Position numbers and translations under genes: made by a program
Shown here: piece after piece, positions 16,381-64,000 of the stretch
Layout: each line of letters starts with the position of its first letter
Numbering within the stretch: the stretch's first letter is position 1
From: an uncultured Planctomycetales bacterium
GTDB taxonomy: Bacteria; Omnitrophota; Gorgyraeia; Zapsychrales; Zapsychraceae
Length of the DNA stretch: 64,000 nucleotides
NCBI GenBank assembly: GCA_964364455.1
Contig: CAYIMR010000001.1
Location: forward strand, 2,403 to 66,402
Direction of reading: 5' to 3'
Notes under the pieces: model-generated
Seen by the model: only the letters and a program-made list of their open reading frames with translations
Told to the model about the DNA's origin: nothing
Databases searched by the model: none

Positions 16381-16437
16381 TCATTGCCCCTAAAGGCGCC
16401 GCCCCACCCGGTATTCTCGGTTGCCCGGAAAGGAGTG

Positions 16438-16843: not shown

Positions 16844-16967
16844 TCCGCGCGATCCTTCTCCGATCGAGGCCTTCTGCGGCTTAAATATAATTCCGCCTTG
16901 ACCATATCTCTCAGACATGTTAGGATTTGACGATAATTTAGAGTAATCTTTAAAAGGAACAGAAAAG

Positions 16968-17587: not shown

Positions 17588-17599
17588 TTCTTCAGCGCC

Positions 17600-20500
17600 G
17601 GCGAAACCTGCATTATTTCCATTCGGCGCGTTGGTCAGACGCTCCAAAGCTTCTTTATTACCAATTTGCGCCAAGACACCCAATTGCTTGGCCGCGACAT
17701 AAACGATCCCCGCCGCCGCGACGAATGTTCCGGCAACCGCGTACGCTCCAACGCCGATGGCCGCCGTCGCAACAGCCGCAACACCCAGGCCGAGCAGGGT
17801 TTCAATCGTACCGAAGCCGGATTGCCGGGGGTCAATAACTGGGCTGGAACTCTTGCCGAAATTGTTGCTCTTAGCAGAATTTTCCCTTTTTTGTTTCAGG
17901 GTTTTTAAGGTTTCTTCATCCATGCCCATCTCAAACGACGGGTCATCCACAGGGGGGGAGGTTTTCTTTTCTGTGCCGATAAGGCCCAGGACTCTTTGCA
18001 GGTTGTTTTTCCAATTTTCAACCGCCCCATCCACAACATCCTGAGAAACATTTTTTATCGTAAAGAAATCATCAATGTCCGCCATCTGCCCTAGGATATC
18101 TAAATTGCCGATCGACCCATGCTGACCTTGCAAAATACCGGCCTTGAGGATAGCGTCCAAATTCCGGAGGTAATTGCCTCGCAACAACGAGGCGTACGCA
18201 TCCGGCGGCATACCCAATTCAGCGACGACGCCCCTTAGGATTTCCGGCCGCCCTTTATCATACGCGTCGAAGAACAGCGACAAACGGCGGTAATCCCCGA
18301 CCGGCAGGCGCATGACCACCCCGTATCGGTCAAACAGCGGCAAAACGCCGATCGTGTGCCGCGTTAACCGCCCGCCGCGTGAAAGCACCCGGCGTTCCCT
18401 TTCCATCATCCGCGAGATGCCTTGCGGGGTTTCCAACCCGACAGGTGTCCCGGATTGAAGCTGATGTTCCCAATCAAGGAATATCCCCGGTTTGCCGACG
18501 TGTTCTTTAAAAACAGTCGGCTCAAAGGTATCATTGAGATTATGCTTCGCGTAGCCTGGCGTCCCGGCGCCTTTAAACTCCAGGCCAAAGGCTTTGTGTT
18601 CTTTAGTCCCTGAGCCTTTGAGTTCTTCCCCTCTCGTGACAATAGCCCCTTCCTTATTGACACGGATCACCGCCGGCACCGGCAATAAAATCGACCGCCC
18701 GGCGATGCCCAGCATCGGCATCGTAAATGGCCGTTGTTGGGCGTCCACAACCCTCTTGAGCCCGAATCTTTTATACATCTCCTCGTCATTTAAGGCTCGT
18801 ATATACCGGGCCTGATGTAATAACGGCGCGCCTTTTTCGATTTCATAAGCCGGGCCAGCCAAAAACACAAACGATCCATTTTCATTATCAAGGACCCCGC
18901 TGAACTCCTCCGGCAACTGAACACCGGCGGGAATATTCCACCTTGACCCTTTTTTAACATAAACGTCGGCATCCAGATGCAAGAACGGCCTGCCGTGTTT
19001 GTAATATTTCCGCCCTCCTGTTTCTGGATCTGTAAATATGCCGGCCGCCTGATTTGTCAGGGCCTCATCCCGATACCGCCCTGCCACCTTTTGAAGGCAC
19101 GACAACTTTTCAAGATCAAACACCGGGCTGGAGGACTTAGACTTTCGGGCAACAACGTAATAATCAGAGTCATTGAAAAGCTCTACGCTGTATCGCGCGA
19201 ATAATGGATGCATCATCCGGTGGATCCGTTCTTCTGTCTGGAAGAATGTCCTAAACCACCCTCGTTCGGCAAAATGCTTAACAACCGCCGGTGCCAACAG
19301 CCCCTTCCTCCATAACCCCTGCAGAATCAAGAAAGCGGAAACCTTGTAAACGCCCCTCACATAACCGTTCGTCCTTGTGTAATGGCTCCAGGCTTTCTCC
19401 CTGGCCAGGAAGTTGCCGATAAACGTGCCGCCCGGCGCCAGCCTCCCTGCCATCATGCCCACCGCTTTGTCTAAATCAGAAAGGTGGAATAACGTGTCAA
19501 GCGAAACAACAACATCCACACCGCTGATAAGCTGAAGGACCCTGGAATCATAAATATCCATATTTAAGACAGTCACCTTGCCGGCATTGGGGCCTTGGAT
19601 CCTCTGGCGCAACCGCACCAATGCCTCGGCGTTGACATCCACCGCGTATATCGCTTTCACATTTTCTAACGCCGCCACCTTTTTGGTGAGCCCGCCGGCG
19701 CCGGATCCAAAATCAGCGACAACCAGCTTATCCCCGGCTTTTCTCACCTCTTCCACGGTTCTGTCTTCAAGTTTTGTGTGCATGCTAAAAATACTCTTTT
19801 CCGGCGTCACATCAAAAACACGATGTCCTTTACGCTCAATCCAATGAAGAATAGTATGCTTCGGCAAATCCTTAACCGGACTGCTGGTTACAGACACCTC
19901 TTTGATTAATTGAGCAAGTTTCTCCTTAACTTGAGAATCAGAAGCTGCCGGCGGATGAATATGGTCTATTTCCTCTTGGAGCAGGATAGTATACCCTGAC
20001 ATCTCGTTAACACCATAACCGCCTAGCATCTCATCGGGTTTCCTCTTGGACCTCGGGAATAAATGCGCACGCACCTGTCCATTCCCGATATCGACCCATT
20101 TGATATCGATCATGTTTTCCGTAATTCCACCGGAGAGCAATTGTTTAATCTTCTTGCTGGCATTATAGATAACCTCTCCCATCATGCCGCTGTAGACAAA
20201 ATTCACCGCAGGCCAATTAGGTACCTGCTGGCCGGCCTCAGAAACTAAGTCGACAACCTCCCTTTTATCAATGGGGAAGCGCCCTAAGAACCCTTGGAAA
20301 TGGGCATGATGTTTAATAGAACGCCCGGGGCCGTTCCAGTAAATGGTAGCATGAGGCATCACCACGGCAAGAAGCGCGCCAAGGCCCATAACCTTATTTA
20401 ATGATGGCTGAATGCCGTGTTTCCGATAGGCGATTACAAAACTCGGCGTTTTCCTTGCCTCATCTGTCCCCCAGAAAAATGGATTGATATACATTGCCCA

Positions 20501-23500
20501 ATCCTTCAATCCGGAATGGAACCGGCTTAGATCAATACCGCGTTCGGCCAACGGCATATAAGCCGCGCAGAGATTACATTTGCCATCTCCTTTAAAACGA
20601 AGATTAAATACCGATTTTAAGACCAAATCTCTCCATATCTGTTTAGCCGCCAAATAGGTCCCGTAAACAGTTTGCCCCCTGATATTGTTAAAAATATTTA
20701 AGATACCTAATGGGTTCTCAACAGATAAACCCTTTGCGTAATCAGCTCCACGATGTGCGGCATAAACGATTTGATAATCGTCACCGACAGGATAGACTGT
20801 AATACCATTTTCTAATTGCTCTTTTGCAATAAATCCTGCCGCAAGCTGCTGGCGGACCAGGTCCCTAAACTTTTCTTCTATCGTATTCCCTTTAAGGGGC
20901 CTTATCGCATTCCATAATAGAACCAAATTGTTTTTACTAAATATATTTAACGGGCTTGAGGTGTTATCATTTAATATCGGCGAGCTTATGACAGCTTCGG
21001 CATTATTGTTGTTTTGATGATCAAGTTCCTTACTTAACCAAGCATACACATTCATGTAATATCCCAAGCTTCGGTCCCAGCGATTGTCTGCCTGCATGGC
21101 ATTGGTGATCCTCTTATCCCAATTCCTAGGATTGTTTTTGTAAATATTAACTGCCCTCTCAATCGTTACATAAAGCTGACCCGTATTAATAGCCCGGCGA
21201 CGGATGTCTTCTTCGGGTGTGGCAAACGTTCGGCTGACCCCGGCAAAAACAAATCCCGTCGGCTTAGAACCAAGCTCAGCAACCGTATCGGCTAAGCCAC
21301 CGGTTTTGCGGACCAACGGAAGCGTCCCATAACGCATCGCTATCTGCTGATTGATACCGCTGGGCTCATAATCCGAGGGTACAAGAAGCATATCTGCCCC
21401 AGCATAAATCATCCGTGCCAGTTTGTCGCTAAAGGCCTTCACATAAACAGTCCGTTCCAGAGAATCTTTGCCCGCTAATTCAGCCAAATCGTCCTCAAGC
21501 CACTTTTCTCCCGTCCCTAAAATAACCAGATCAATACCTAAGCGTTCTTTTCGCCCGCGATGGATATCATCAATCATGTCGGCAAGGATATCGAACTGTT
21601 TCTGGTCGACCAGCCTTGAAACAACTCCAACCAGTATCCTATCAGGATGGCCATGGCCTAAGTGGCCGTATTGTTTATCCGTAACAAGGCCGATTTCCTG
21701 AATCCCGCCTCTCTTGGATAAAAGTTTCTTTAACACATCCTTGTTGATATTCTTGGCCTTTCGGATATCCTCAATAGCGTCTTTACTGATATCATAATTT
21801 TCCGCAAGCGCCGTGTCTGTCGCGGGGTTCCAAACCTCAAAATCAATCCCATTTAAGATCCCGCCAAAACGGTTGGAGACATCCTGTAGAAGCCTATCGA
21901 TTTCAAAATAGGTACCCCTGATTTCCTTGGCATAGGTTTCACTGACCGTGTTGATATAATTGCCCTTGCCTCCCAAACGCAATATCACCTCAGGGACTGT
22001 TGCCATAAAATTCAATCTCCCCGACTTGACGATAAAAGGCTCTATATTACTCAACCCGATCTCCGGCAACCATTCCACGGGATACTCGCCTTGGTATCCA
22101 ATATTATGAATGGTGAAGATACTCCCTGTCCGCGCGAAATAATCGCCAAATCCCGACCGCATATAAAGGGAAGCGAGGGCGGTATGGTGGTCGTTTGTAT
22201 GGATAATCTCCGGTCTTATCCCCAGTTGTTTAAATAATTCCAAGGCCCCGCGCGATAACAAGATCGATTCATAAAATTCTGTTTCCTTCCCGGAATATGG
22301 ATTAACAAACATATCTTCACTCTGAGCCACAAGCATATACACCGTAATGCCGTCTATGGCAGTCTTTTTAACCCTGAGAATTTCATCTTTCCTCCTATTA
22401 AACGGTATTTTTATTTCAACCCCCTCAACATCTTCAGCCTCATACCTCTCTAATTTCTCGACCATTGAGGCAAAATATGGCATAACAACACTCACATCCT
22501 TGCCTGCCTTGGCAAAGGCTTTAAATAATTCATGCATAACATCACCTTGGCCGCCTACTTTCACTAAAGGTCCAAATTCCATGCCGATGGCGGCAATGCT
22601 TCCCTCATATTGCTGCATAATTCCAACAAAACCATTACCGCTTTGTAAATCAGCCCATTCCAACTCTCCGTCAATTCCTTTAAAGGCAACCGTGTAATCA
22701 AAACTATCCGCGGAATTCATTTTAAGTTCATAGACTGCACGGCCATCCTCACGGTTTTCCACAAACTCAAACGGCGTTTCAAAGAATTTCCACGGGCCCT
22801 CTTCATTGCTTAACTTATACCAAAGCCTCACATCCCTATTGCCGTCAACATCCCCTCGATTGGCAATGGTCCGTAAAGTAATATTACCGCCTGCCGCACT
22901 CTGCCACACACGGCTTGCCTCTTCGATATATCCACCCCTTAATTCATCCGGCAGTACCACACCCAGACTTTTCGTCAACTCCTTATTTCCGATCATCAAG
23001 CTCCGCTTAACATTTTCCTGCAACACATAATTTAAGGATTGTTTAAGGCCGTAATCCTCCTGTATTTTTCGATAGAGTATCCGGCGGGCATCTTCCTCGT
23101 CCAAATGCGATAAAATCAAATGGCTGATTTCGTCAAACATAACCATTTTTAAAGCATTGAGCAGATGAGATGCGTATTGAATGTCCTTTTGTAGCTCATC
23201 AGGGATTTGAAGAAGCCGGTAAGATAAATAGATCACGCCTTCCTTGATATGGGCCGCATGCTCGGCCCGGCCGTGAAGCCGTATTGATACTGTCCTTTCT
23301 GATTTTCCTTCATCGTCTCCTTCAAAGAACATTTCTTTATGGCCCGGAAGCTGCTGGTCAAGGGCATATATCAGCGCCGATTCAACAGCCTCTTTAATCT
23401 TCGGCGTACTATCGCCTTCCACTTTGACTGTTATTTCCCCCGCCTCATTCATCTCAACCATTGCCTCTAGCGATACCCTCCTCTTTCCTGGCCACCTCTT

Positions 23501-26500
23501 CGCTTTCATCGGAAAAACGCCTTTTTCTTTCTTCGAAGAAATCTTTTGAACCGGTGAGGAGGTTTCTGCTTGTGGCAGGCCTTTGGACTGGACCAAAACA
23601 ATGTTGGAAATATAGCTGAAAGATCCTCCCGTCCATCCCATAGTGGTGGTTAGCTTATCAGTTTTAAATCCTAGTTTTTCACCATAGTCTGCCAATGTTT
23701 CAAAATCAACCCTGTGCGTGATATCGACCGAGGAAACTTGGCGGCCGAAAAGGCGTGTTAACGGCAAACTGATATTATAAACATAAACACTGGGCTGTCC
23801 GGGTTGCGTATAAACGTCTTCGCGCTTGAGCTCTCCGTAATCCAGCGTAATAACGTAACCGCGCCGCAAGGCACGGGAAACCTCTTTATTCCATCGCAGG
23901 GCCTCTAAATTAACCGCAAATTCCGTCCCTTCAGGAGGGATGACCTTATCCGCCCAGTTCGCAAAATACGCGGCAATGGTTTGATCGGAGATTCCTCCCT
24001 CAACTTCTTTATAAGTGCCATCTCTGTAATCGACATAAATTTCTTTTAGCCTACCTTGCCGGACAACCACGCGGTGGACAGGGAACGTATCCAAGAGCTC
24101 GTTGGAAAGGAAGATCCCCTCAACGCTTTCATCCTCAAACGGCAAATTCCTGGCTGAACCATTAAGAAGAGTGACCTTTTCTTTATAATCTTTTGCCTGT
24201 AGTTTTTCTTCGACTGTCTTAAGAAGTTCGGGGCTGATTTCCACATCGACGCACTTGATAGCGTTCCATAGATCTCTGTAACGGGCCTCCCCTTCCAGGG
24301 CCTCCATGAAATTCACCATAAGACTCCCGTCACCGCCGCCCATTTCGACAACTGTAAATTCATCAGGGCTCCCCATGTTCTTCCAATATTCAAAGATCTT
24401 AGCCACAACGCTTCTTATCCTTTCTTTATGCTTCGAATCTGTTTCAAAAGATATGTCCCTGTGGCCTGTGTAATAAGCACCTTCTGCGTAAAGAACTTCT
24501 TCCTGGAATTTGTCAAAGGTCATTACCTCGCGTCTCTTGACCTGAAGTGCGGCCTCTTTGGCCCTTTCCACCGGAGAAGAAGAGCCTTGCCGAAGGTTAT
24601 CTGCGTTATTTTCTATGATAATTTTCGTATCACGAAGGAATAACCTTCCATTTACTTTTCTGAACTCCCCTCTTTCGATGACGACAACGATATCTTGTCC
24701 TTCAGAGAGCGTGTTCAAATCCACTTCCATGCCTGTGTTGTTCTCAATTTCTATCTCTCCTTCCAACTCGGCATCCTTTAAGTGCACCACACCCTTAATC
24801 TCTATTCCCTTTAATTTCGCCACGCTGGCCCGGCCAAAGGCATTGATGACATGCATTGCATCCAAATAGAACTTGTCATGCAAATTAAACAGCGGCGGCG
24901 CGTGCCCGGCATACCTGTCCTCCAGCATCCACTTCCTCCGATTCAATTGATAATAATCACTATAGGCCTGCAGCCAGAAGTCAATGGCAAACTTAATCGG
25001 CGTAAAGAATTGCGTTCTTCGGGTGACATCAACATTGACAATTCTTAAAATTTTATCCACCTGGTATCTCTCTAAGATCGCTCTTACCATTGGGTTCTTG
25101 CTCGTCATAAAATAGTTGTGAACGTTCAAAAAGACAGTCCCAATTGGCCCTTCTAATTGAATATAATCCTTACCATCTTTTCCTTTTTTATCCGCAACAA
25201 TGAGGTCTGGCGCGAATATCTTTTGCAGCTCCTCCATGTTGCCTTCAAATACTTCGCTTCGTAAATCTTGTAAAATCTTGGCCAATAAACTGTAATTGAT
25301 AAGCGCGATGTTGGTATTGAAGTACTGCGCGCCTTCCTCTCCTTCTCCGCCTTTTAAGCCCACTTCCTGGAAAACCGTTTCTTGTTGATTATTCTTCGCT
25401 GAATTCAACTCTAACATCCTCACCGTTACTTTCCCGTCCGCTAAAAATTCAACGCCGATCATGCCTCCCTTGCGATCAATACCTGTCTTGGTAGTGGAGA
25501 CCATCACCAAGGGGACATTGCGCTTCAACATCCATTCCACAATATATCGGTCCGGCATATTGTTGGTGCCATCGCCATTATAAAACGCCACCACGATATT
25601 ACTCTCTTCAGACGCATAATCATGATCCAATGCCCCTCTTAAATACTTGAATCCCCATTCTCCGTGACTGGCCGAAGATTCTCTCGCGTAGGTCGCTTCC
25701 TTTGTCTGCGCATCCAGCGAGGGATAAAATGGCGCCACCTGCATCCTTACCTCTATACCTGACTCATCAAGGATCTGTTTATAACTGCGTTCCTCCGCGA
25801 TCAGTTTGCCCTCTAGCAGATCCGGCAAATACGGCCGTTCTAACAACGTTTCGTAGGATGGCTTGGAATCGTCGCTGACAATCGGCTGGAATACCACTTT
25901 CCCGTGATACTCTCTTCTTTGAACTTCTTGAATTAATCGCAATAACTTCACTTCTGCGACGCTTACGATCTTCTCCCCATAGATCCCTTCAAATCCAAGA
26001 TCCGTACCCTTGGCCCCCAGTTCGTTTCTTCCCCAGAATTTTTTTACATAACTCTCGCGTTCAAGGCTTGTTCCTAATCCGGCATCTAAATTCCCCAGCC
26101 TGATCTCGTAAACTCTTTTGGCTTCATCTGCTCTCATTTCCTCGACAATAGTTTCATAATCCTGGGCCCCTAACAAATCCCTGCGCTGATCTTCCGTCAA
26201 CAATGCCGAAGGATAAAAATTCCCCTGGTTATTTCTGGTTTTAATGATCAATTTCGGACGGTCAGCGGACGGGTTCCGATACAATCGCAAGAATGTCTTC
26301 CACAGATCCCTGCTGTAGTTATCCAATCCCCGTTGATCAAAAATTCTTTCAAGAGATTCATCGTCTTGCGCGTCCTCAACCGGTGAACTCGCGGCCGGCC
26401 CCATCAAATCAGCCAATAACCTCTTCACCTCGTCTCTGGCCTCGCCGGCAAGCCATTTCTGAATTCCTTGTTTGACCAATTCTTCGATGTTGGCCGTTCC

Positions 26501-53500: not shown

Positions 53501-56500
53501 CACACTGTCTAACAGACTCGTAAATATGCCCTGTCCTTCGACATTGTATTGCCTCATATCAAAGCCGCCCAAATCAAGAATATTCCTTCCTTCTTCACTT
53601 CTTAGGCCAAAAAGTATATATGGATGCTCCGGCAGGGTACTTTCTTCCGGAAGTCGTGTATAAAGTTCCTCTTCGACAGAAACAGCCTCAAGATAAATCA
53701 CTTTTTCATTTCCCCATAACTGGATGGAAACAATGACGTTATATTCCCTCCCATCCTTTGCCGTAAACCTTGCGCCTTCGAAATATTTTTGGATCATCTC
53801 TTCGGTTATTCTTGCTTTTTCTGCTGAAGTTCGTTTTCTCACGGGGCTGGAACTCTTCACCGGCGAGGAGGCCTTGTCTTCTTGATGATCTTTCTTTTCT
53901 GCCGTATCCTGCATCTTGAACAATGCGCCTTCTTGCGTCTCCTTGGAACCCCGTCTTTCTAACACGAAAAGAACTGCCTTGGATACAACAGTAAAGACAA
54001 CAAAGACGAATCCGTAATAGGCGCGCGGATACAGGGACCGCAATGCCCTGAAGGCCGCTCCCGCCACAATGACTGAAACCCCCGTCCCAAACATCCCTTC
54101 TGTAAAGAAATAGCCCCCGGCCAAAAGGCTGGTCAGGCTGAAACCCCCTCCATAAACGCGCAATAGGATCTTCAGGCCCGCAAGAGCTGAAATCACAGGC
54201 AAAGACAAAAGTCCGAGGATAATCAAGAACGCCGCCGCTGCTGCCTGAAGCCTGTTGGCAATCAGGCTCTTCCATACGCCGGCCACGCGGCCTATCCCGC
54301 GGCGAGAGGCGCCTTTCGAATCAACAGGGCTGGAGGCGTTTTCAACGATAGACAAAGGATGAGGGATAAAAGATACGGCCATCCCTCGTCCCTCATCCTT
54401 CGTCCCTCGTCCTTCGTTAATTGAGCGCGCTGGTTGAGGTTCGGTAGCGCGGAATTCGCTTGTCACTAAAAGCTTCACAGACAAGTTGCTGGATACGGCT
54501 TTCGCTGAAGCCATCGAGTTCTTCCCAGGTTTGGTTGATACCATTGCGTTGGTACGCACGGTTCTCACCGGTGAGAACAAGATAGACCTTAAGGCGGTTA
54601 TGATCTTTGTCTTTTGCTGTAACAATGACGCAATTCGACGTGGGAACGTAGACAAAATGCTTGACTTCAAGGTTTGCACAGCTTGTGTTAAGTCGGACCA
54701 TGACAGACCTCCTTTGTTTTCGTCGCTCGTCGCTCGTATTTCGTATTTCGTAACGGGACGAACAACAGAAAGGGCATGATCAGTCCCAACCAAAACACCG
54801 GGACCAACCAGACCCTTTCGATTAACCACTTGATTTAATTTATCCTGTGCCCAAATAACTAAACGAGATACGAGATACGAGATACGAGATACGGCATTAG
54901 GTAAGCGGGCAAAGTAAGCAGCAAGCAGCACGGATAATAAGGCGATCAGGATCGTATTATTATCCATATTGCCTTTTAAAGCGGAGACAGACGGAATAAT
55001 ACTGAAGAGGGCGGTTAAACCCCTGGCGGTATTCGCGTTAACTCCTTCGGACACACGACGAGAAACATCCGAACGCTCACGCGAATCTTGAAGCGGTAAT
55101 CCAATCGGACTTGCGGCTGCACTAAACCAGCTCTCCCTGGACTCGCGGCTTCCAGCTACACCTTCAGAAGCTTCACGTGCTCCAAGGACGTTTCTGTATT
55201 GATCAACAAGGCCTACATTCGTAGAACCTTGATTGTATCCAACCCTATCAGCAGCATTGCCGTTGATTCCAATAGTCCTTACATCTATAACTACGGACCA
55301 GAGAACCTCAACAGCTTCGTTCCTGGTTAAGGCCTGCCCTACTTCTAATCCAGCAGACACTCCAAGAACTCGAACGATCCTATACCCATCATTTCTGATG
55401 GACACAGACCGCGCACTGCTTTTTCCACTTATAAGAACCACATACTGAGCTAATCCAGACCCAACTGTCGCAGGGCCAGATTCAGAATTCTTCTTATCAG
55501 CCAATTCTGAAATGGCTTCAACTTCACCAGCTGTCCTATATTCACGAGATCCCTTCCTGTTAACCAGGACGAATTCGTGTCCATAGTACTTCAGCACTTG
55601 CGCTACTAACTCCGCTACTTCTGCCAACCGTCCTCTAACATATATATATATCAGAGTAGATTGGGTACTTCTGCTGCTATTCACTCCATTCGCCACTCTT
55701 ACTGCCTGAGACACACTTCGAGAATCAGCTACTCCTTCATTTTGACCATTATGGCTTAACCCATTATGATCTGATGAGTTAGAAACATACACTTCTGACT
55801 TCTCTACTGCAAACACCACTTCTACTGTATTCTTTATCCGCTCTCCTGCCTTTTGCACTGCCTGATCCACTGCGGAAGTGGACGGCAGCTTCCAAATGCC
55901 CGGACTAGGACCGCTTCTGCCAAAGTTTGTACTAGTGTCCTGAGAAACCTGCCTGATTGGGTTATGTGCCCTGGAAACTTCTTCCTTTATATCAGGAGCC
56001 TCACCAATGCTGTTTTTCTTAATCTGGGCATACCAATCATTATGACTTGGGGCCTTTTTCACCACCTGGACTATCGGAACATCCCCAACAACACGACTGG
56101 GCGGAATGCCACCGACCGCTATTGCGGGGATGGCGGTAGCAGGCCGATCATCCCGGCCAAATGGTAACGCATCTGTTCTGGTTCCCGTATCCGCCTTGGT
56201 CGTCATAGACCCACGATCAAGCTCGTAGGTTCCCTTGATATTGCCTTTCTGATCGATCTTAAAAGGTGTCTTTCGGTCACGAGCGAGGCCAAGCTGCATA
56301 ACAGGCAATGACAGGATAGGTGCGATAACTGGCGTTCCAGGACCAAAATCTGGCGGCATAATAATAATAGGTGTTGGCGGAACAGGCAGTATGGCCTTCT
56401 CTGGGGCTAAAGAAGGTGTCATGGTCTTGAGTGCCGGCTGACCGTCAGCGGCTGTTGTTGCGGATGATTCCACCGCCGCTGACTCTTTATTCTTGCCCGA

Positions 56501-59500
56501 GAAAAACTGTTTCAAATCTTCGAAGAATTGCCCCACCCCGCGCAAGAGCGCCGGCACAGCGTATAATTCCTTCATGCGTTGCGCCGTTTCCGCGGCTTTT
56601 CCGGAAACTACCGGCGAAGAGGCGCCGCCTTCAGCCTCAACCAGCGAGCTGGCTACCTTGTTTCCATCAACCTGCAATTCCCCAATTTCAGAATCGAATT
56701 CAATTATCCTGGTTGCGAGGCGGCCCTCGTTCATGTATTCCGCGTAATTCCCTCCTACCTCCTTTAGCTCATCCCTAACTACATTGACAAACTTATCAAA
56801 GCCGTAATCTTCGCTGGTTTCATTTAAAACCAACCGTACCTTTAAATTATTAAGGCCAGCCCCTGAACCTTTAAATTTATTTAACATCACGCCATTAATA
56901 AAATTCTTCGTATATTTTTGCATCTCGGCCGCAGAAGCCATCGAAAGAGGAGGGGTTAAATGCCCTAAAACCGCAACTTTATTATTGAGATCATATACAA
57001 GAACTCCCAAGCTTCCGGCTAAATTCCGTGTGGTTAATTTCCCCTTGCCTGTTTCGGCACCCCCGACAGGAACCTCAACGGGGAGAAAAGGAGTCACCTC
57101 ATTTACCGCCTGCTGAATCTTTTGATTAAATTCCCGGATCTCTTCTTTAGTGATGTTTCCTTCCTCCGCGCGTAAGCGCCGCTTGCGAATATCCTCTTCG
57201 GAGTCAAACTTGATTTGTTTTGTTCCAATGTCATCAATGACCCTTCTTACCAGCATCGCGGCGGCCACAGATGCCTTGATGCCATCTCGCAAGAAACTTT
57301 GTTTTTCACGGCCATCCAACAAACCCACATACAGTTGTTCATTCGCCTCAATGTTCTGTAAGGAATCTCTATAGCTCGCCTCAACCCGCCTGTTGGCCTG
57401 CTGGAGCATGCCTTCATAAAAATCCTTTGACCGCGTTTTCACATCCACCAAACCCAACAGATCAGATACGACATTCTCCCTTTGAGCAAACAACTCTTCG
57501 CTGCCGATGTATAAGAAAGCGAGGGCGTTCATTAACCTATCCTTATCCTTCTGCTCAATCTTACCGATATCTTTTCTCTCCTGATAATAAGTCCTATTAA
57601 TAACCTTGTAATCAACCGGCCCTAAGTCTGTTTCCCATCTGCCGTTTATAAGACCGCGCGTATCATCGGGCAGTTCCGCGACAATAACAACATCAACATC
57701 TTTCCACAGGCTGCTTCCATGGGCCGCGGCATACACAATTTCTGCCTTTTCACCTAATTCCGCGCGCACATTATTCGGGACAATTTCTTTCAACCTTCTC
57801 TTTTCAGCTTCGGTCATCGGGCTGGAGGCGCCCTTGGACTGGGCCAAAACAATTCTTCTTTGCGCCGCGCTGGTATTTTGCGCCTGACGAATCATCCATT
57901 CTCCAATGGCTTGCTCAGGGGCCGTCATCTCTTTGCCGGGTAAACTTTGGATTTCCGTCGGCGTGAAAGGTTCAGCCTCGGCCACCATGCGGTTGAGAGG
58001 GATCTTTCCCTCATTTAATAACTGATAAGGCTTAACCTCCTTATTTTTAACCTCTTCCCCTTTGGCATCAGCGCGTCCTTGACCATAGGCAATGTCCCTA
58101 TTATCAATTAACTCAGCTGGCACACCTTTTAGCGGTATGCGCACAAAACCACCTGTGACAGCCGGCAATGTTTCCGTATGACTTGTTAATTGGGAAAGGT
58201 TGAAATTCCCCTGGGACCTGATCTTCTGATATTGCTGCGAAGAAATCTTCAATATATTCGCGTCCCGGGCTTCCACTTTAATTTCATAATCATTCACCCG
58301 TTCTGCCTTAAGGCCTATTGCTGTTGCCTGGATATTTCTCCCCTTGGCATCCTTGATCACCGGAACAGGGATATCCGCGTATTCGCTATTAATCCTTTGA
58401 CTATCAAAGGCAACCTCATAAAGATCGCCGGTAACACGGTCAACGAGATGGATTTCAGGAGCCCCCGCCTGAGGAGATACCTTTGATCGGCGCGGCATTC
58501 GCACAACCACTTCCGGCTGTGCAATGGCATATTCAACAGGTGTTAAATTATCCGGATGATCAAATTCCTGCCGCATAACCCTTGGCAAATTATGTTGAAT
58601 GTATGCGCCCACATCCATTGATGTCTGCCCAATAGCCTCTTGAGCGACTAAATCAGCCACCGTTAACTGACGGTCAATGATCTCATCACCGGCCTGACGG
58701 CCATGAACATTTGAGATGGCCCCGATATTATTGCCATCCAGGCGATAAACCAGGATATCCTGGTTAGCGGCATCCCAAACAACAATGCCATATTCGTCCG
58801 AACCCGGCCCCATCCTTGAAACAATGGCCAAATTCTCCGCAGGGCGTGTACGGGCCACCATATTGATGAAGGCCTTATAGTTATCATTACCGACAAAAAT
58901 ATTCTGTTTACCGGGTATTCGAGAGCTTGTATAACTCGCCTGGCTGGCAATCATCGAATCAATAATTTTCTTTGCCCCGGGGATATCCCCAAAATCAACC
59001 GCATCATAAAACGCTTCTTCTGTCTCTCCGGGGATCTGTCCTGAATACCCTTGCGAGAGAGTATCAAACCCGAAGTCCTCTATGCCGATAACCTTTGCCT
59101 CACGGATCGCTTGTTGCATATCCGGCGTATACGTCGCAACCGCGCTCATCGGCGCCGTCTTGGATTCTTTCAATAATGGTTCTCGAATTTTTATTAACCG
59201 TTGGTTCACTGTCTTATCTGTTCCCGGAGCGTCCGGCCTTTTTAGCGCCTCCTCGACAATCGCCTGCCGCGTTTGCGGCAATTTGTTGCTGAATTCACTT
59301 AATTGGACATACTTCCCTGCCTGGAGAGCCTCGCTATAAAGATTATCGGCTATTTGCTTGGCTTCTGTTAAATTGACTTCTGCCCCACCGGTATAAACCG
59401 GTGAAATACCCGCGTAAAAATTCAAATCCCCTGCCCCAAAGGCATCCACCTTCTCTTTTAATTCCGGATGCTCTTCCGCGATCTCTGTTTTAATACGGTT

Positions 59501-62500
59501 AACAATTTTATTCCTGAAATTATCGGTCACCGCGTCTGTCCTCAAGAGAACATTGCTTAAAACATCCTCGGTGAAACTAACCCCTCTTTCCGCGCGGGCA
59601 TTTCTTTCTCTATACCCGGCTACTTGTGCCTGCCGCGGGACCATTACTTGAGGAGCGCCCTCGAAAACAACAGCATAATTAGGCCCGGCCTTATAGATAT
59701 CAAAATCAATATCTTCTTCATTTAACGGTGCCTCGCCCTCTTTAACCGTTTGATTGTAACTCTTGACCGTCTCGCGAATGGCTTCTCGAATCGCACCATT
59801 TATCTCAGGGCCGGTATACGCCAGGACCTTATCCCCTATTTCATGGCCAACCCCTAATTCTTCACCCAGGGTATTAAGCCATTTCAGATCCTGAAGTTTG
59901 ATCATTGAAATACTAACGGCCTCCTTCCCCTTCTTCACTCGCGATATTAAATCCTCCTGGAGTTTAGAATAACTCTTGACTCCACCCGTTCTCGTAAATC
60001 TTTGTTGAAGGCTCTCAAATGTTTTGACAACGCCGCTAATAGCTGACTTGTCAACCGGGGATCTGGCCTTGACCGGCGAACTGGACGCCTGAGGGTTCAA
60101 AACATCTTTGATCTTCGGCGAAATGGTGATTTTCATATCGCGGGCCGGTTCCACCGGGCTGCTGGACGACGGGCCTTGAACCAATTCGGGCGGCGCCGCC
60201 TGAATTGACTGTCCCATGACCGGCGAGCTGGAAAGTTTAATAGTGACAAGACTTCCTTCCGCCCAACCCCGGGCATTGAAAGACCCAAAGGATCCGTCGT
60301 CAAACTTCACGTGAACGACAAACGTGTTAATACCGTATCCCCTCGGCATAAATCTGAAACTATGAATCGTGCCTAACCCCTGAGCGGTGTGCTTAACTCT
60401 TGCGCCTTTCACAACACCCTTTTCTCTCAGAGAGCCCAGCAATTCCCGTGCCCCCTCTTTTTCCTCTGGAGTCAACTTCACCGGCGAGGCCGCGGATTGA
60501 GGTTCCCTGCGCCCGATCACCACTGCACCCCAATTGGGCCCTCTCGAAATGGGCACATTTGCTACAACTTTTAACCCGGATTCTTCCATTTCAGAGACAG
60601 AATCAAAATGCCTCGTCTCTCCGCGTCCACCACTATTCATCACAACATGCCCGCCCGGGCGCAGATTCGAAACAACTTTTTTGAAAAGATCCCCGCCTAA
60701 GAAAGGAGAATAACTCACATATAAAACATCATAACCGCTGGCACCGTCGAGAGAATCGCTGGTAACTTCAGGAGGCACAAATGACGCAGCGTCTTTGTTG
60801 ACATAGTAAATGATCTCACGATTTTTTATCCTGCCATCTGTCGCCGGAAGGCCGAACGTAAAGACGGCCCTGGAGGCATCGCTCAAATCCATATTCAAAT
60901 CAACGGCTCCTACCCCTCGCAGTTGTTTCTCGATGGCCGTGAAGTTATCCAGTCCGTTCGTATCTCCCATGAACTGCCGGGAGAGATCTACAAATACATA
61001 ACGCGAGGCATCTGTTGCGGCCAAAGGTCCAAGCACATCAAATCCAGCGCCGGGATAATAAACCGTGATATCCCTGCTGCCATCAGGATTGATTGCCGAA
61101 GGGCCGATCCTCCCCAGCATCTCAATCTCAAACGCCCTAACGGGCCGTGTCTCTTCGGTCAGCTCAGGCCCAAAATTCACGCCGCCTTTTAGACGTTCAA
61201 TAAAATGTTTCCTATTCCCAGGTTGCCCCACAGGGCTGCTGGAAGCGATAAGGTCACGGGCCGCGGCTGCATAATCTCTCTCTTTTGCAGGAAGCCTTAC
61301 AAGATACGCCTCATCAATGCTTGCGGCCAACTGCTTAATAAACGTTTCAGAAACATGCCCGCCCCAGGGACTGTTCTGCCTAATACTTGCCATAAGGGCA
61401 TCCGTGCCCTCAATCTTTTCAACCGTCTGAGAGGTATAATCCGGGCTGACGTCAAGCAGAACAACCTTGTCCACCGTAACAAACTCGGGCCTCTGATTCA
61501 CATCTGCTCTGATAAGCTTGCCGTTCTGCTCCCTGTCCCTGTAAGGCAATCTCCCAGCACCTTTAACATAGTTGGGGCCGGCAATAAAAGTTTCATCAAA
61601 GAAAAATCCGACAGGGATGTCATCAATTACCAGGGCATAATCGCGTGGGTTCAAGTCAAAAATTTCACGGCTCAAAGTAGATTTGCCGCTTTCCGGAACG
61701 CCCAGAATCAGCACCCCTCCATTTGTCCGATTGTCAACGAGGACATTGCCGTGTATCGAATAGACATCCGCATCTTTCAATCCAAGGTCACGCAGCTCCT
61801 GCTTTAATGCCACAGGGAGACTGACATTCTTCAAATTATCCAAGCCGGTTTTAACCTTTTTGTATATCCGGTTGGAAAGATTCAGCACATCTTTCAGGGT
61901 CACCGGCGAGGAGGCGGCAAGATAGGCCGCGGCGGCCGCGTAATCCTTCTTTTCTTCATTTTCAGGAAATTTCACAAGGTACGCTTCATCAATGCTCGCG
62001 GCCAACTGCTTAAGAAATTCCTCAGAGACATGCCCGCCCCAGGGACTGTTCCGCCTGATGATTTCTATAATAGCCTCGGGTGAATTAATTTTCTCAACTG
62101 TCTGGGAGGTGTACGCGGGGCTGACTTCAAGCAAAACAACCTTCTTAACCCTTACAAATTCAGGCATCCGATTTACGTCCGCATCATTTATGAGTTTTCC
62201 TGTCCGATCTCTGTAAGGCAACGTCCGCGCCCCTTTGACATAGTTAGGACCGGCGATGAATGTCTTCTCATCAAAGAAGAACCCAACAGGAATATCGTCA
62301 ACAACCAGGGCGTGGCGGCGGCTCAAATTCAGAATCTCATGGCTCAGTAAGGATTTTCCACTTTCCGGGGCCCCCAAAATCAGAACACCCTTGTCTGTCT
62401 GAGTGTCAACGAGAACATTGCCATGCATCGGATACACCTTCCGATGGAGTTTTTCCTCTAATGTCGTTGGGAGGCTGACATTTCTTAGATCATCTAATCC

Positions 62501-64000
62501 CTCCTTTATTTCTTTATATGTTGTATCGGCCGTATTGAGGACTTCTCGCAATTGGGATTTGAATCCGTCATCGTCTCGACGGCCTGAGGACAGCCTGCCA
62601 GCTTTTCTGAAATAATAACTATTCTCACCCAGCGGCTTGAATCCTAATCCCTTGAAGAATCCTTCCCAGGCCGCTTGCGCTCCCGATTCTTCTCCTAAAT
62701 AGACAAGATTCGTACCCAAAGAATAGTCTGTGCCAAATTCTTGAACAAATTTACGTACCAGCTCTCTGCCGTACCCATTACCGCCCGCTTGCGTCCCGAC
62801 CTCGACATGATACAAATTGAGGAACTTGTCATTGTCCGGATTAGGCTGAATGGCCACAAGGACGGCGTCGGGACGTTTGCTGTCTCCCATGTAGAGAACT
62901 TCTACTTTTGTATTTTGCTTAAAGGCTTCTAAAATATTTTGATCATTGCTGCCGACCTTTCTTTCTAACCGGCTAAAGGCTTTAAAATTATCCAGGATAT
63001 TCTTGACGTCATTTTGATCCGCGGCTCTATTCACAACAGGGCTGCTGGAGATTTCCATATTTGTAGTAACTGAACTCTCATAATACTTATCAATGAGGCT
63101 TGCCAACTGGCCCAATGTGCTGTCATTATTGTCCTCAACGACAGCGGCGGGCATGAATTCGGCAAATTCTTTCTTATAATCAACAACATCCAGCGTCTGC
63201 GCGTCCTTAGAACTAAACGCCAGCGCGCGGAGAGAATTGATGATCTTCTCACCCGCGAGATCCACAATGTTCTTTTGCTCGTCGCGTACGGCTTGAGTAT
63301 CGGCCGTCGCGGAAAGAATTTCCGCCTGCCTGGTCCATTGAGGATTGATGGCGATCCGCGCCTCGAGGCCTTCTCCCTGGATATACGCGTCGGAACTGAC
63401 AATAAGCGCGTGGCTTTCTGTGCCATCCGCCAACGGTGTGCTGACAATAATCGCTCTCTGCAAACGGGCGCGCGACACATCGACATTGCCGCTGCCGGAA
63501 ATCTTCTCCAAGATCGTATTAAATTGACCCGGGCTGACGCGCTTGACCTGCCCTTCGGCGATCGTGATCCCCTGCTTGATCCCGATGTTCAGGGCGACCG
63601 CGTAATCCCTGTCTCCTTGCGGAAGATTAAATTTGCTGTTTTCCTTCCACGCGTCCACGGGAAGCGCCCTGGCAAGGATGCGCGATCGCCAATCGGACGG
63701 GATCCGGATGTCCGGTTCGCCGACAAGAACCGCCGCGTTTTTCTCAACTTCATCAAACGTCACTTCGTTGCCCCCGGTATCGTAAAACACCTGGCGCGTG
63801 ATCGTCTTCTGGACCTTATGGATACTGCCCGCTTCGTCTTTCTGTTCTTCCACCACGGTTTCCAGGACGATCTTCCCCGTGAAGATCTTCCGGCTGTCGA
63901 CCCCTATCGACCCGATATAATCTCTGACGGCCTCTGCCGTCTGGTTATCCGGGACAGGGACAAGGGTCAGCCGGCCGGTCCTGCCGAGGGTAACCGCTTT
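17600..64000 (-). CDS. Giant multidomain fusion ORF (ORF-R). The N-terminus lies beyond window end 64000. An in-frame ATG at 54380-54382 has an open frame upstream of it. One apparent frame discontinuity was verified at about 40735-40745, and at least one more is implied. The C-terminal end near 17600-17840 is unresolved.
   Basis: Hand translation of the reverse strand gives continuous protein with the modules listed below, and many motifs were verified against the plus strand. Not in the supplied ORF track. Confidence 0.45.
17640..17830 (-). other. Module: Gly/Ala-rich hydrophobic segment (possible C-terminal membrane anchor), following SSSPVID
   Basis: GTIETLLGLGVAAVATAAIGVGAYAVAGTFVAAAGIVYVAAKQLGVL verified at 17701-17840. 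Confidence 0.35.
19140..19860 (-). other. Module: class I SAM-dependent methyltransferase
   Basis: VVADFGSGAGGLT (motif I, verified at 19686-19724) and GVDVVVSLDTLFHL. Confidence 0.55.
19900..20950 (-). other. Module: HIT-superfamily GalT-like nucleotidyltransferase
   Basis: YWNGPGRSIKHHAHFQGFLGRFPIDKREVVDL verified at 20221-20340 (His-phi-His-phi-His HIT signature). An upstream Cys pair GDGKCNLCAAY is present. Confidence 0.5.
21000..22600 (-). other. glgA: Module: glycogen synthase (GlgA, GT5)-like
   Basis: MEFGPLVKVGGQGDVMHELFKAFAKAGKDVSVVMPYF, IIHTNDHHTALA, NGIDFEVWNPATD. ...AMRYGTLPLVRKTGGLADTV verified at 21281-21340. Confidence 0.6.
23560..24570 (-). other. Module: MidA/NDUFAF7-like (DUF185) SAM-dependent methyltransferase
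   Basis: VVEMGGGDGSLMVNFMEAL and SNELLDTFPVHRVV. Preceded by RQGSSSPVE (verified at 24575-24595). Confidence 0.4.
24600..26370 (-). other. Module: UDPGP-family UDP-sugar pyrophosphorylase (UGPase/UAP-like)
   Basis: LGNLDAGLGTSLERESYVK verified at 26041-26100 (LNGGLGTSMG signature position). Confidence 0.5.
26400..27400 (-). other. Module: Pol-beta-superfamily nucleotidyltransferase
   Basis: GGYAAGSVPSGEAVEGSDIDMHIHFGEG verified at 26641-26700 (GS...DxD motif). Confidence 0.5.
27430..28420 (-). other. Module: Gfo/Idh/MocA-family NAD(P)-dependent oxidoreductase
   Basis: IALVGLGRWGGGVMLNVL (verified at 28322-28390) and HYELARQALLAGKDVLVEKPLA. Confidence 0.5.
28450..29600 (-). other. Module: radical SAM domain with a C-terminal Cys-rich (SPASM/twitch-like) extension
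   Basis: MGCNNYCVWCTRL (CxxxCxxC) verified at 29371-29400. Downstream Cys clusters: FTQCQHCKF...YPCTSVS and QCPDCTRF. Confidence 0.55.
30500..34700 (-). other. Module: polytopic integral-membrane blocks (many predicted TM helices; possible GT-C or transporter-like fold)
   Basis: Long runs of hydrophobic helices, e.g. MANFFSFAVLLTGFIGSGLALGYVSLLAGVLPLGLSYLSVVPPFAITLFLLIA and LVLVNVITFVLLQVVLFIDPAHSFPFAGAFVTSGFVLALSIV. No fold could be assigned by eye. Confidence 0.4.
39950..40900 (-). other. Module: TIM-barrel glycoside-hydrolase-like domain (clan GH-A-like). The frame breaks inside it.
   Basis: HLRDIDLMKEMGVRVIRTYYPITSKAFLDKLAENGIKVIVGFPYF (frame A, verified 40741-40920), then DNTRNRGPDMLGGGYIDYIKKHKDHPAILMWSFGNDYNDL (frame B, verified 40621-40740). 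The NE-type catalytic position reads ND. Confidence 0.45.
42200..43100 (-). other. Module: beta-barrel-like segment with alternating hydrophobic pattern (porin/OMP-like)
   Basis: ...NVTLNFSLNREHEKGYLDLW...YFTAEQAIGSNRFSLTGRYKNLNVSYSNVKGAETYGVGLNINKDVKIGVSKD...YAKYNLLSF. Based on composition and pattern only. Confidence 0.3.
48250..48650 (-). other. Module: LytM/M23-like beta-fold domain (catalytic motifs degenerate)
   Basis: GTRVRSILDGRVTAVERGPRGYEITVESTSQEGIKIKQVFGHLGAVEI...GAHYLFRLKL verified at 48181-48300. Confidence 0.4.
49350..49900 (-). other. Module: soluble lytic transglycosylase (SLT) domain
   Basis: AESRFNPKAVSPKGARGLMQIIATTW verified at 49561-49680 (ES...GLMQI signature), and ...LAGYNAGP downstream. 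Confidence 0.65.
50000..51900 (-). other. Module: long coiled-coil region
   Basis: About 600 residues of E/K/R/A/Q/L-rich heptad-like sequence (e.g. ELRSLHEEIITAVEESAAAREKKADKDEAEDRRLREIQ...). Confidence 0.4.
52200..54382 (-). other. N-terminal region after the in-frame ATG at 54380-54382. It contains clustered SSPV motifs and two blocks of TM helices.
   Basis: MAVSFIPHPLSIVENASSPVDSK..., TM helices (FLIILGLLSLPVISALAGLKILL, LSAGLLAGIMTAAVGFSWLPAVLFSIF). ASSPVKSSSPV verified at 53843-53870. Confidence 0.4.
54385..54420 (-). promoter_or_regulatory. Purine-rich GGACGAGG-type tandem repeats immediately upstream of the in-frame ATG at 54382 (Shine-Dalgarno-like)
   Basis: Minus strand reads aacgaaggacgagggacgaaggatgagggacgagggATG. 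The same repeat family occurs at 15845-15885, 16545-16580, 53295-53325 and 54721-54750. Confidence 0.3.
54417..54701 (-). CDS. Small ORF (94 aa, MVRLNTSCANLEVKHFVYVPTSNCVIVTAKDKDHNRLKVYLVLTGENRAYQRNGINQTWEELDGFSESRIQQLVCEAFSDK...). It overlaps the giant reading frame in a +1 frame.
   Basis: In the ORF track. The AAAGGAGG Shine-Dalgarno sits 6 nt upstream of the ATG (verified at 54702-54716). The sequence is globular-looking, whereas the giant frame is low-complexity over the same span. Confidence 0.4.
   Translation of the reverse strand: MVRLNTSCANLEVKHFVYVPTSNCVIVTAKDKDHNRLKVYLVLTGENRAYQRNGINQTWEELDGFSESRIQQLVCEAFSDKRIPRYRTSTSALN
54858..54890. repeat. Tandem heptamer repeat (GAGATAC)x4
   Basis: Directly visible: gagatacgagatacgagatacgagatacgg. 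It encodes (SRISYLV)-like residues in the giant frame. Confidence 0.8.
56640..57820 (-). other. Module: unassigned alpha/beta module between ASSPMT (about 57815-57835) and ASSPVV (verified 56610-56635)
   Basis: Protein-like translation (…VDVVIVAELPDDTRGLINGRWETDLGPVDYKVINRTYYQ…VEVPVGGAETGKGKLTTRNLAGSLGVLVYD…). No confident family assignment. Confidence 0.25.
60480..61220 (-). other. Module: Rossmann-fold methyltransferase-like
   Basis: ITVYYPGAGFDVLGPLAATDASRYVFVDLS...GYDVLYVSYSPF. Assignment is tentative. Confidence 0.3.
61240..61890 (-). other. Module: HprK-C-like P-loop kinase/phosphorylase domain, copy 2
   Basis: NGGVLILGVPESGKSTLSREIFDL verified at 61653-61705. Confidence 0.5.
61900..62600 (-). 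other. Module: HprK-C-like P-loop domain, copy 1 (tandem paralogue, about 80% nt identity to copy 2)
   Basis: KGVLILGAPESGKSLLSHEILNL verified at 62326-62378. The duplication is visible at DNA level when 61261-61400 is compared with 61921-62070. Confidence 0.5.
62640..63030 (-). other. Module: GNAT-type acetyltransferase-like
   Basis: HVEVGTQAGGNGYGRELVRKFVQE verified at 62761-62815. It follows MEISSSPVVN (63038-63058). Confidence 0.4.

Follow-up and report, generated by a model that had tools for sequence, protein, structure and literature searches.

A stop-free frame of 21,333 codons with recurring peptide tags at its module junctions, from a probable member of the Omnitrophota

We analysed a window of 64,000 nucleotides (contig CAYIMR010000001.1, positions 2,403 to 66,402) which is covered by one minus-strand gene for a giant multidomain protein. 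The identity of this gene and the modular anatomy of its open reading frame (ORF) are near certain. A five-residue peptide of the type SSSPV recurs at the junctions between the modules, and the view that this tag is a module delimiter is strongly supported. As the leading explanation, to which we give slightly less than an even chance, we propose that the chain is an exported modular polyprotein with the tags as processing sites; cleavage and delivery are hypotheses that we infer from the features described below.

The giant reading frame and its junction tag

2..64000, minus strand: one continuous ORF of 21,333 codons, with 0 stops and open at both window ends

Residue i of the protein corresponds to window position 64000-3(i-1). 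Reverse-complement frame 0 (window 2-64000) contains 0 stops in 21,333 codons where ~1,100 would be expected, and the probability of such a stop-free frame, calculated from base composition, is ~1e-490. The remaining five frames have 531-1358 stops each, with a longest open stretch of 454 codons. The original prediction had described a minus-strand multidomain ORF of more than 15,000 codons; by this six-frame stop count the claim holds and was understated. A frame break had been placed at about 40690 but does not exist, as window 40541-40840 reads in the same frame as a GH2-like protein. The lower limit given for the ORF (~17600) was also wrong, the frame continuing to window base 2. It had been noticed correctly that the ORF is missing from the ORF track: ORFs which run off both window ends, as this one does, are omitted there, and the listing shows just plus-strand shadow ORFs of at most 432 amino acids (aa). 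There are seven such antisense ORFs (215-432 aa, window 37886-50308), all within the GC3-rich block described below, and we take each of them for a shadow of the giant gene.

A related ENA contig, L077 (ERZ1286166), extends the ORF upstream of the window by ~7.9 kb, corresponding to at least ~2,600 codons. The full gene has more than 24,000 codons, and the window is an internal 64-kb slice of it, in which no tRNA or Rfam family was matched. L077 is colinear with window 53303-61917 at 99.5% identity, and a second ENA contig, L001 (ERZ2470813), is colinear with window 54515-61917 at 99.89% identity. Because these independent public contigs match colinearly over 7.4-8.6 kb, the sequence is natural, correctly joined at least locally, and not a one-off assembly chimera.

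We consider it hardly credible that the region is not one gene, be it a mis-assembly, a set of separate genes with lost stops or a member of another megaprotein class (nonribosomal peptide or polyketide synthetases (NRPS/PKS), RTX adhesins, MARTX toxins). Short public contigs of the region have been called as several genes, and an exact 215-nt repeat could mislead an assembler. However, errors create stops and do not remove the ~1,100 that are expected. The gene splits in L001 result from five single-base homopolymer deletions relative to the window, and those in L077 and in the more distant contig L074 from frameshifts, both contigs showing the overlapping, frame-hopping ORFs that are typical of noisy long-read assemblies. 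In-frame stops at the junctions or a chimeric assembly had been named in advance as evidence that would count against a single gene; there are 0 stops, and two independent assemblies show the same order as the window over many junctions. Pfam returned no match in the window for condensation, adenylation, ketosynthase (KS), acyltransferase (AT), RTX, cadherin or C80 domains, and there were likewise no matches to the domain sets that characterize NRPS (condensation, adenylation and carrier domains) or PKS (KS, AT and acyl carrier protein domains).

Public assemblies (L001, L074, L077) were seen to fragment giant genes through homopolymer indels and long-read frameshifts. As such errors split giant genes, protein databases hold fragments only, and automated annotation conceals giant ORFs.

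The SSSPV separators mentioned in the original prediction are real and highly significant. The pattern [AGS][AS]SP[VIMLT], with the core [SA]-S-S-P-[VI], occurs 30 times in the window where 0.44 copies are expected. An unbiased scan for over-represented 4-mers has SSPV (27 copies, 0.21 expected) and SSSP (19 copies, 0.17 expected) at its top. The tags fall into two groups separated by a long tag-free unit:

53333..63049, minus strand: 14 tags on the N-terminal side ([AGS][AS]SP[VIM], 15 nt each) at residues 318, 696, 920, 1170, 1257, 1279, 1306, 2058, 2460, 2962, 3222, 3377, 3383 and 3552; first base on the minus strand at 63049, 61915, 61243, 60493, 60232, 60166, 60085, 57829, 56623, 55117, 54337, 53872, 53854 and 53347
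27419..53332, minus strand: tag-free central unit of ~8,640 aa (aa 3557-12194), with helix blocks, an envelope-active stretch, a radical SAM enzyme and an oxidoreductase
1229..27418, minus strand: 16 tags on the C-terminal side at residues 12195, 12348, 12537, 13140, 14956, 15384, 16061, 16277, 16466, 17149, 17230, 18785, 19585, 19591, 20274 and 20920; first base on the minus strand at 27418, 26959, 26392, 24583, 19135, 17851, 15820, 15172, 14605, 12556, 12313, 7648, 5248, 5230, 3181 and 1243

Tags avoid folded domains. None of the 30 lies inside a Pfam envelope (8.5 expected), and the 12 residues on each side are poor in order-promoting residues (0.243 versus 0.338, p=6e-7). At the density found elsewhere, 20.4 tags would be expected in the central unit, which has 0 (P(0)=1.4e-9). 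The distances from tag to tag match whole stand-alone proteins: GlgB is bracketed by tags 16466/17149 (spacing 683 aa), RelA/SpoT by 18785/19585 (800 aa), a phosphorylase-like unit by 20274/20920 (646 aa) and UDPGP by 12537/13140 (603 aa). An AlphaFold (AF2) model of residues 16277-17230, computed with 12 homologues, is confident for 16506-17147 only; confidence for GlgB collapses one residue before the C-side tag, and the tags are thus predicted to lie outside the fold. The earlier count of more than 25 modules is roughly right, with 27 tag-delimited units and ~20 domain matches.

The codons of the tag differ between copies and include switches between the TCN and AGY serine families. Because of this variation, conservation is at the level of the peptide rather than of a repeated DNA sequence. 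In 63 instances, drawn from four sequence sets, there is no conservation beyond the five tag residues. Selection acts on the tag as a peptide, and its copies stand in linker-like sequence shortly after the natural ends of the enzymes.

Several other identities of the tag were considered. A DNA repeat or recombination site is ruled out by the codon variation. An internal start is ruled out as well, the valine codon often being GTT, GTC or GTA and no stop preceding it, and so is a sulfatase-maturation motif (S-x-P-x-R), position +5 being variable. A lipobox, a signal-peptidase I site and a 2A-like skip all misfit the three tag classes (see below) when these are taken together. A literature search for the tag strings retrieved unrelated matches only.

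Tagged relatives and exchange of modules

SSSPV-type tags recur in related proteins. P0011 has 5 (0.04 expected), P0035, a complete protein of 3,371 aa, has 9 (0.09 expected), P0067 has 5, P0061 has 4, and the NCBI protein P0184 (labelled Candidatus Omnitrophica) has 6. An ENA contig of 348 kb carries a giant gene of 24,000 codons or more (L074/P0030/P0081) that is interrupted by frameshifts and has 27 tags over 25.9 kb. Its modules share only 24-34% identity with their counterparts in the window, and the tag is kept at the same position ahead of Methyltransf_28. The 16 ordinary genes neighbouring P0035 (6,285 aa) have 0 tags, so that the tag is not a genome-wide compositional effect. Among short Methyltransf_28 homologues, the pattern occurs in 2 of 110.

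Other relatives have other tags. In P0003/L075 (Candidatus Omnitrophica) the tag is LGCFFGLP[VI]MA, present in nine copies. P0105/L076, a complete gene coding for 7,864 aa, has nine copies of ARAETR, and RSEMR is found in P0046, P0191 and P0009. ARAETR and RSEMR occur in four to nine copies per protein; the spacing of the alternative tags is 250-1,600 aa, and their codons (Leu, Gly, Arg) vary too. The GlgB unit of the window, which lies between SSSPV tags, has homologues in P0003, P0009 and P0011; these are enclosed by LGCFFGLP, RSEMR and an SSSPV-type tag, respectively. As the C-side tag follows 7-17 residues past the end of stand-alone GlgB in all four proteins, the tags mark ancestral protein termini.

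The named relatives with the same or a sister tag are labelled Candidatus Omnitrophica or Omnitrophota (P0184, P0003, P0031, P0191-193); P0069 is labelled Deltaproteobacteria. We regard membership of the Omnitrophota as probable, judging indirectly from the labels of tagged relatives and from the architecture rather than from marker genes of the genome itself. The likeness to Omnitrophota giant ORFs, which the original prediction had suggested, is borne out by the literature and by the labels of the nearest named relatives.

Complete multi-enzyme relatives of 2-4 kaa (P0002, P0004, P0005, P0007, P0032, P0035, P0184) share a conserved N-terminal cap after the signal peptide (LPxPG...WVNLSP...MGRDLLAQDYLLKQL) and a C-terminal cap (GGIDLNP / GGIDFRAL ... 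PVII). Both are without Pfam assignment and may be export or sorting elements.

Comparison of the window with the public contigs and with itself revealed the following variable regions:

61917..63102, minus strand: variable module slot between tags 318 and 696, replaced in two independent assemblies (L001, L077)
38212..53080, minus strand: 14.9-kb block of distinct synonymous codon usage (aa 3640-8596), with a G+C content at third codon positions (GC3) of 0.70 versus 0.48-0.49 in both flanks
12346..12560, plus strand: 215-nt direct repeat, copy 1, whose start on the coding strand lies exactly at the SSSSPV codons of tag 17149
7438..7652, plus strand: 215-nt direct repeat, copy 2, covering tag 18785 and the first 66 residues of the RelA/SpoT unit

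From tag 696 onward, L001 and L077 are 99.5-99.9% identical to the window. In the slot between tags 318 and 696, the window has a GNAT-like domain and copy 1 of an HPr-kinase-like module, and the two contigs have a tag-rich replacement module of ~860 nt (L001 1-782; L077 8776-9636), with flanks that are 97-99.9% identical. At the other end, the similarity to L077 stops ten residues after tag 3552, is absent for ~1.8 kb and resumes at only 79.8%. The GC3-rich block falls together with the envelope-active stretch that is free of tags. Its GC1 and GC2 are unchanged, and its preferred codons are CTG/CTC, GGC, GAG and AAG. It is strain-divergent, being ~80% identical to L077 or unalignable, compared with 99.5% upstream. 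This suggests that the envelope-active block is of mosaic origin, through recombination.

The two copies of the 215-nt repeat are 100% identical and flank a 4.9-kb block with an amylase-like and a GlgA unit. An orphan fragment of a RelA/SpoT N-terminus (81 residues) is left between tags 17149 and 17230. A cassette seems to have been inserted or duplicated here in frame, and very recently. Taken together, the strain differences and the repeat show that cassettes were recently replaced and inserted, with breakpoints at or beside tags. Such swaps, along with the mosaic of codon usage, point to an evolution of these genes through the exchange of cassettes.

It might be argued that the tags are merely scars of a gene-assembly mechanism, that is recombination or cassette-insertion sites without a role in the protein. 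The strain differences and the 215-nt duplication begin at or within ~18 residues of tags, and in a local step test the GC3 steps at tag-bounded modules are modestly larger (0.090 versus 0.063), a coincidence of marginal significance (p=0.03). However, it is the peptide that has been maintained and not the tag DNA (TCN/AGY switches in SSSPV; varying Leu, Gly and Arg codons in the other classes), the tag persists between relatives with modules that are 24-34% identical, and 15 variable bases are too few for homologous or site-specific recombination. Breakpoints in linkers are to be expected anyway, only in-frame linker junctions giving viable proteins. We thus consider such an origin very unlikely.

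Export, processing and comparable systems

The chain is nearly devoid of cysteine. There are 22 cysteines in 21,333 aa (0.1%), and 10 of these 22 serve as Fe-S ligands in the radical SAM/SPASM unit. Tagged relatives have 0-0.3% cysteine, compared with ~1% in neighbouring genes, and relatives of 4,000-7,864 aa have none at all. Strong avoidance of cysteine is typical of proteins that cross membranes unfolded. Sec-type signal peptides are found at the start of the complete tagged relatives P0105, P0035, P0009, P0191 and P0186. Together, the near-total avoidance of cysteine and the signal peptides of the relatives suggest that the chain may be threaded unfolded across membranes.

The content of P0105 (L076 1447-25041) contrasts with its export signal. 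This cysteine-free protein with an N-terminal Sec-type signal peptide contains NUDIX, oxidoreductase, methyltransferase, anti-sigma-type kinase, sigma-70 (regions 2 and 4) and GT2 modules, one per tag interval. This is a paradox, unless the modules work inside a different cell or the signal peptide goes unused. For giants of this kind, Nielsen & Lui 2026 (bioRxiv 10.64898/2026.06.07.730766) describe an unresolved conflict between the metabolic content and the predicted outside topology.

For the polyprotein that we propose, the chain would in effect be an operon translated as one polypeptide. A dedicated, lineage-specific endopeptidase would recognize the tags, and co- or post-translational cuts at these sites would release the individual enzymes. 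The tag-free central unit would stay together as one membrane-anchored, wall-attacking product. As the chain looks built for export, the enzymes with nucleotide cofactors may be cargo that acts outside the cytoplasm of the producer, possibly within the cells of a prey or host. Conserved sites that recur where functional units meet, a hallmark by which polyproteins are recognized, are present. A wider version of the proposal would be that giants of this class in general are true polyproteins, with lineage-specific tags of 5-11 residues (SSSPV, RSEMR/RAETR and LGCFFGLPVMA) as cut points at which a dedicated protease frees dozens of ordinary enzymes and regulators, and that these giants are exported, possibly into prey, and exchange cassettes at the tags; this is possible, and we hold it more loosely.

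Several observations weigh against the polyprotein. No processing protease was found in the window, which has no HExxH motif, no match to C39, S8 or C80 and only a degenerate M23 domain. The three tags are chemically unrelated and would need three protease specificities. Several tag-delimited units hold more than one enzyme, such as that between tags 13140 and 14956 (MT28, GlgA and MT12). Export is difficult to square with the presence of a radical SAM enzyme, and the helices are called by hydropathy alone. Finally, the multi-enzyme relatives P0004, P0005 and P0007 (~4,000 aa) have no tag, so that fusion does not require one.

A protease was also not found in P0003, P0035, P0046, P0009 and P0105. 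In L074, a module of ~250 aa with an M48-like HEGAH motif (~15026-15790; P0030 residues 1697-1947) is flanked by two SSSPV tags. By its motif it is a candidate for a processing protease encoded in cis; a counterpart was not found in the window.

In the main alternative, the chain is never cut and acts as a membrane-anchored mega-enzyme, with the tags as linker motifs that a partner reads without cleavage. They could be hinges for a peptidyl-prolyl isomerase (PPIase), sites of serine phosphorylation or glycosylation, or docking sites for a chaperone or translocon that paces module folding or export. Several findings point this way. Ser-Pro is invariant in the SSSPV tag, a cyclophilin-type PPIase gene lies directly upstream of P0035 in two contigs (L078 9199-9741, L079 463-1005), and giant genes have a conserved PPIase upstream according to West-Roberts et al. 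The giant protein of the window itself contains HPr(Ser)-kinase-like P-loop modules, and the lack of a protease in the window fits here too. Published proteomics of Velamenicoccus archaeovorus maps peptides to the giant ORF and reports no fragments. But a role of the PPIase cannot be general, as the RSEMR/RAETR class has no proline. It is also hard to imagine that a ribosome-binding enzyme of RelA/SpoT type, or the sigma factor of P0105, works while tethered, and passive linkers do not normally hold an exact 5-mer across modules of 24-34% identity. On balance, we consider an uncut chain somewhat improbable.

Giant Omnitrophota proteins with this architecture have been reported. West-Roberts et al. 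2023 (bioRxiv 10.1101/2023.11.21.568195) described genes of >90 kb coding for >30,000 aa, with peptidases and NUDIX among their domains. Their 'Archaeovorins' combine GT5 (glycogen-synthase-like), GT1, methyltransferases, glycosyl hydrolases, SLT and many transmembrane helices; a protein of 39,678 aa from Velamenicoccus archaeovorus serves as type sequence. Features of that class include a divergent SecA DEAD-like domain, a C39 or S8 peptidase near the N-terminus, a flanking type II/IV-like secretion locus, and PPIase and pilZ genes, and the cleavage points are stated there to be unknown. Nielsen & Lui 2026 defined a class 1 of 'multi-enzyme metabolic cluster' giants, in which PF08323, PF00534 and radical SAM are abundant.

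Our gene agrees with these giants in being a single ORF, here of more than 24,000 codons, with many transmembrane helices, GT5/GT1, methyltransferases, radical SAM, HD-type regulators, a glycosyl hydrolase and SLT, and also in its poor sequence conservation, most of the protein being unannotated. It differs in that the window, which does not include the gene ends, holds no SecA-DEAD, C39, S8, HEAT, TPR or NUDIX domain. The domain set and the transmembrane helices of Archaeovorins are present, with NUDIX found in the tagged relative P0105 and not in the window. As in class 1, many families tile the chain, none is dominant and a sugar-metabolism module is included. The assignment to the published Archaeovorin or class 1 multi-enzyme kind is supported. 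The fusion of envelope and membrane modules (SLT, a degenerate LytM/M23-like fold, PG_binding_1, polytopic blocks) to cytoplasm-type enzymes, which the original prediction had claimed, is confirmed; that this combination is highly unusual is not true for this class, where it is the published signature.

West-Roberts 2023, Nielsen & Lui 2026 and Seymour et al. 2023 (PMC10066038) make no mention of tags at junctions, of an avoidance of cysteine or of modules being swapped there. The 5-residue junction tag is apparently undescribed, and the tag classes, the exclusion of tags from the envelope unit, the purge of cysteine and the module swaps are absent from the literature on giants that was searched.

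In function, MARTX and large clostridial toxins may be the closest analogues, being long exported chains with a membrane-active part, enzyme modules, linkers that carry a short site, and reshuffling between strains. In MARTX toxins, the processing sites lie in unstructured segments between the effectors (PMC2900308), and the effector repertoires are reshuffled by recombination (PMC2900308, PMC5218395, PMC6315884). Our gene is not a MARTX toxin: the window is without RTX or glycine-rich repeats and without the C80 (InsP6-activated) cysteine protease, the tag is SSSPV and not small-Leu-small, and the size is 5-30 times larger. Its modules are housekeeping-type bacterial enzymes and not anti-eukaryotic effectors, and processing is proposed here by inference only.

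Short recognition sequences that flank each unit are also known from viral polyproteins and from multi-cassette precursors of ribosomally synthesized and post-translationally modified peptides (RiPPs), such as cyanobactin PatE with PatA/PatG. By analogy with these, a site that differs in sequence between lineages would be expected if it co-evolves with its protease. Here, in contrast, the units are whole cellular enzymes, encoded in a cellular genome, and the protease is putative.

Compared with an ordinary glg operon (glgB, glgA, glgP, glgC-type) and a stand-alone RelA/SpoT, the giant gene has the same GlgB catalytic regions, the same GlgA motifs (KxGG, EPxG) and units of protein size. It differs in having no stops, start codons or intergenic regions, with the units fused in frame and cysteine purged, and in that some units (LytM, RelA/SpoT, the amylase-like fragment) are degenerate.

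With regard to how a cell uses proteins of 20,000-150,000 residues, published studies ask whether the chains are cut, and they differ as to which side, cytoplasmic or outer, the metabolic modules are on. The tags predict exact peptide termini, allow in silico splitting of the chain into natural units for structure prediction and serve as a marker to tell two compartments of the chain apart. Co-occurrence of tag class and protease gene offers a route to the processing enzyme. If the wider proposal is true, these giants would be the bacterial equivalent, 10-30 times larger, of viral polyproteins and MARTX toxins.

Domain anatomy of the chain

Domains were assigned by Pfam, NCBIfam and PDB sequence searches, and helices by a Kyte-Doolittle hydropathy scan (19-residue window, threshold 1.7). 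About 20 distinct Pfam/NCBIfam families were found, none in more than 2-3 copies. The 33 hydrophobic 19-mers of the hydropathy scan form six clusters, and self-BLAST revealed three internal duplications only. In order from the N-terminal side, the features are as follows:

61901..62551, minus strand: HPr-kinase-like P-loop module, copy 1 (aa 484-700), weak Hpr_kinase_C and TIGR00679 matches
61229..61897, minus strand: HPr-kinase-like P-loop module, copy 2 (aa 702-924), a tandem duplicate 65% identical to copy 1
52265..54955, minus strand: membrane-helix cluster 1 (aa 3016-3912), ~7-9 hydrophobic segments
49901..49993, minus strand: PG_binding_1 (aa 4670-4700), Pfam E=4.7e-5
49352..49666, minus strand: SLT lytic transglycosylase (aa 4779-4883), E=2.1e-18; E-S, GLMQ and AGYNAG motifs intact
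48269..48514, minus strand: LytM/Peptidase_M23-like domain (aa 5163-5244), E=8.5e-8; degenerate, without the HxxxD and HxH metal ligands
40391..40687, minus strand: GH2/GH158-like TIM-barrel fragment (aa 7772-7870), from Pfam/PDB sequence search
33521..36421, minus strand: single helix (aa 9194) and membrane-helix block 2 (aa 9795-10160, ~6 segments), from hydropathy
30488..31528, minus strand: membrane-helix block 3 (aa 10825-11171), ~8 segments, from hydropathy
28481..29443, minus strand: radical SAM enzyme with SPASM-like Cys cluster (aa 11520-11840), CNNYCVWC, CQHC, C11792 and CPDC; CxxxCxxC kept
27671..28378, minus strand: Gfo/Idh/MocA NAD-binding oxidoreductase (aa 11875-12110), E=1.4e-18
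26513..26716, minus strand: nucleotidyltransferase with MTPAP-like palm (aa 12429-12496), weak match, E=0.005
24776..25582, minus strand: UDPGP-type sugar-1-phosphate nucleotidyltransferase (aa 12807-13075), E=2.3e-9
23654..24394, minus strand: Methyltransf_28, MidA/NDUFAF7-like (aa 13203-13449), E=2.5e-36
21239..22594, minus strand: glycogen/starch synthase 1, GT5+GT1 (aa 13803-14254), E=9.8e-41; KVGG and EPSG motifs present
19418..19711, minus strand: class I methyltransferase, Methyltransf_12/11/25 (aa 14764-14861), from Pfam
17669..17806, minus strand: hydrophobic hairpin (aa 15399-15444), from hydropathy
12566..14389, minus strand: GlgB with CBM48, GH13 and amylase C domains (aa 16538-17145), all four GH13 conserved regions intact
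10946..11218, minus strand: alpha-amylase-family catalytic fragment (aa 17595-17685), from Pfam; catalytic motifs not found
7991..9325, minus strand: glycogen/starch synthase 2 (aa 18226-18670), E ~1e-36; KAGG and EPGG motifs present
5501..7585, minus strand: RelA/SpoT-like unit with HD_4, RelA_SpoT synthetase and ACT domains (aa 18806-19500), HD dipeptide absent, synthetase motifs partly kept
4589..4702, minus strand: second ACT domain (aa 19767-19804), from Pfam
1553..2980, minus strand: alpha-glucan phosphorylase-like GT-B unit (aa 20341-20816), TIGR02094 E=1.3e-23; weak Pfam matches to GT5/GT1
137..1153, minus strand: C-side hydrophobic segments (aa 20950-20997 and 21270-21288), from hydropathy

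There is also a weak hint of a GGDEF domain at aa ~1334-1407, and the methyltransferases in the window number three. Helix cluster 1 is followed by a helix-free stretch of ~5,300 aa, in which the PG_binding_1, SLT, LytM-like and GH2/GH158-like domains are located.

Exact 50-mer and 40-mer searches of GTDB species genomes and JGI metagenomes gave no match. With the GlgB unit as query, a protein-guided scan of GTDB genomes returned ordinary GlgB genes only (at most 60% identity, in ORFs of up to ~1,500 aa). No relative turned up when metagenomes were scanned with the PG-binding/SLT/LytM block. A word-indexed protein search with the N-terminal modules returned only the sequence itself, so that most modules are orphans. 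The GlgB module is 50-61% identical to ordinary GlgB, and it is about equally close (~60%) to the GlgB of many phyla.

Inspection of motifs indicates that the chain is a mix of probably active enzymes and degenerate folds. In the RelA/SpoT-like unit, EIQIMT is found where EVQIRT is expected. This unit and the LytM/M23-like module may be regulatory or binding folds rather than enzymes. Judged by its domain matches, the toolkit for alpha-glucan and glycogen metabolism is complete, comprising two copies of GlgA, GlgB, the amylase-like and phosphorylase-like units and UDPGP.

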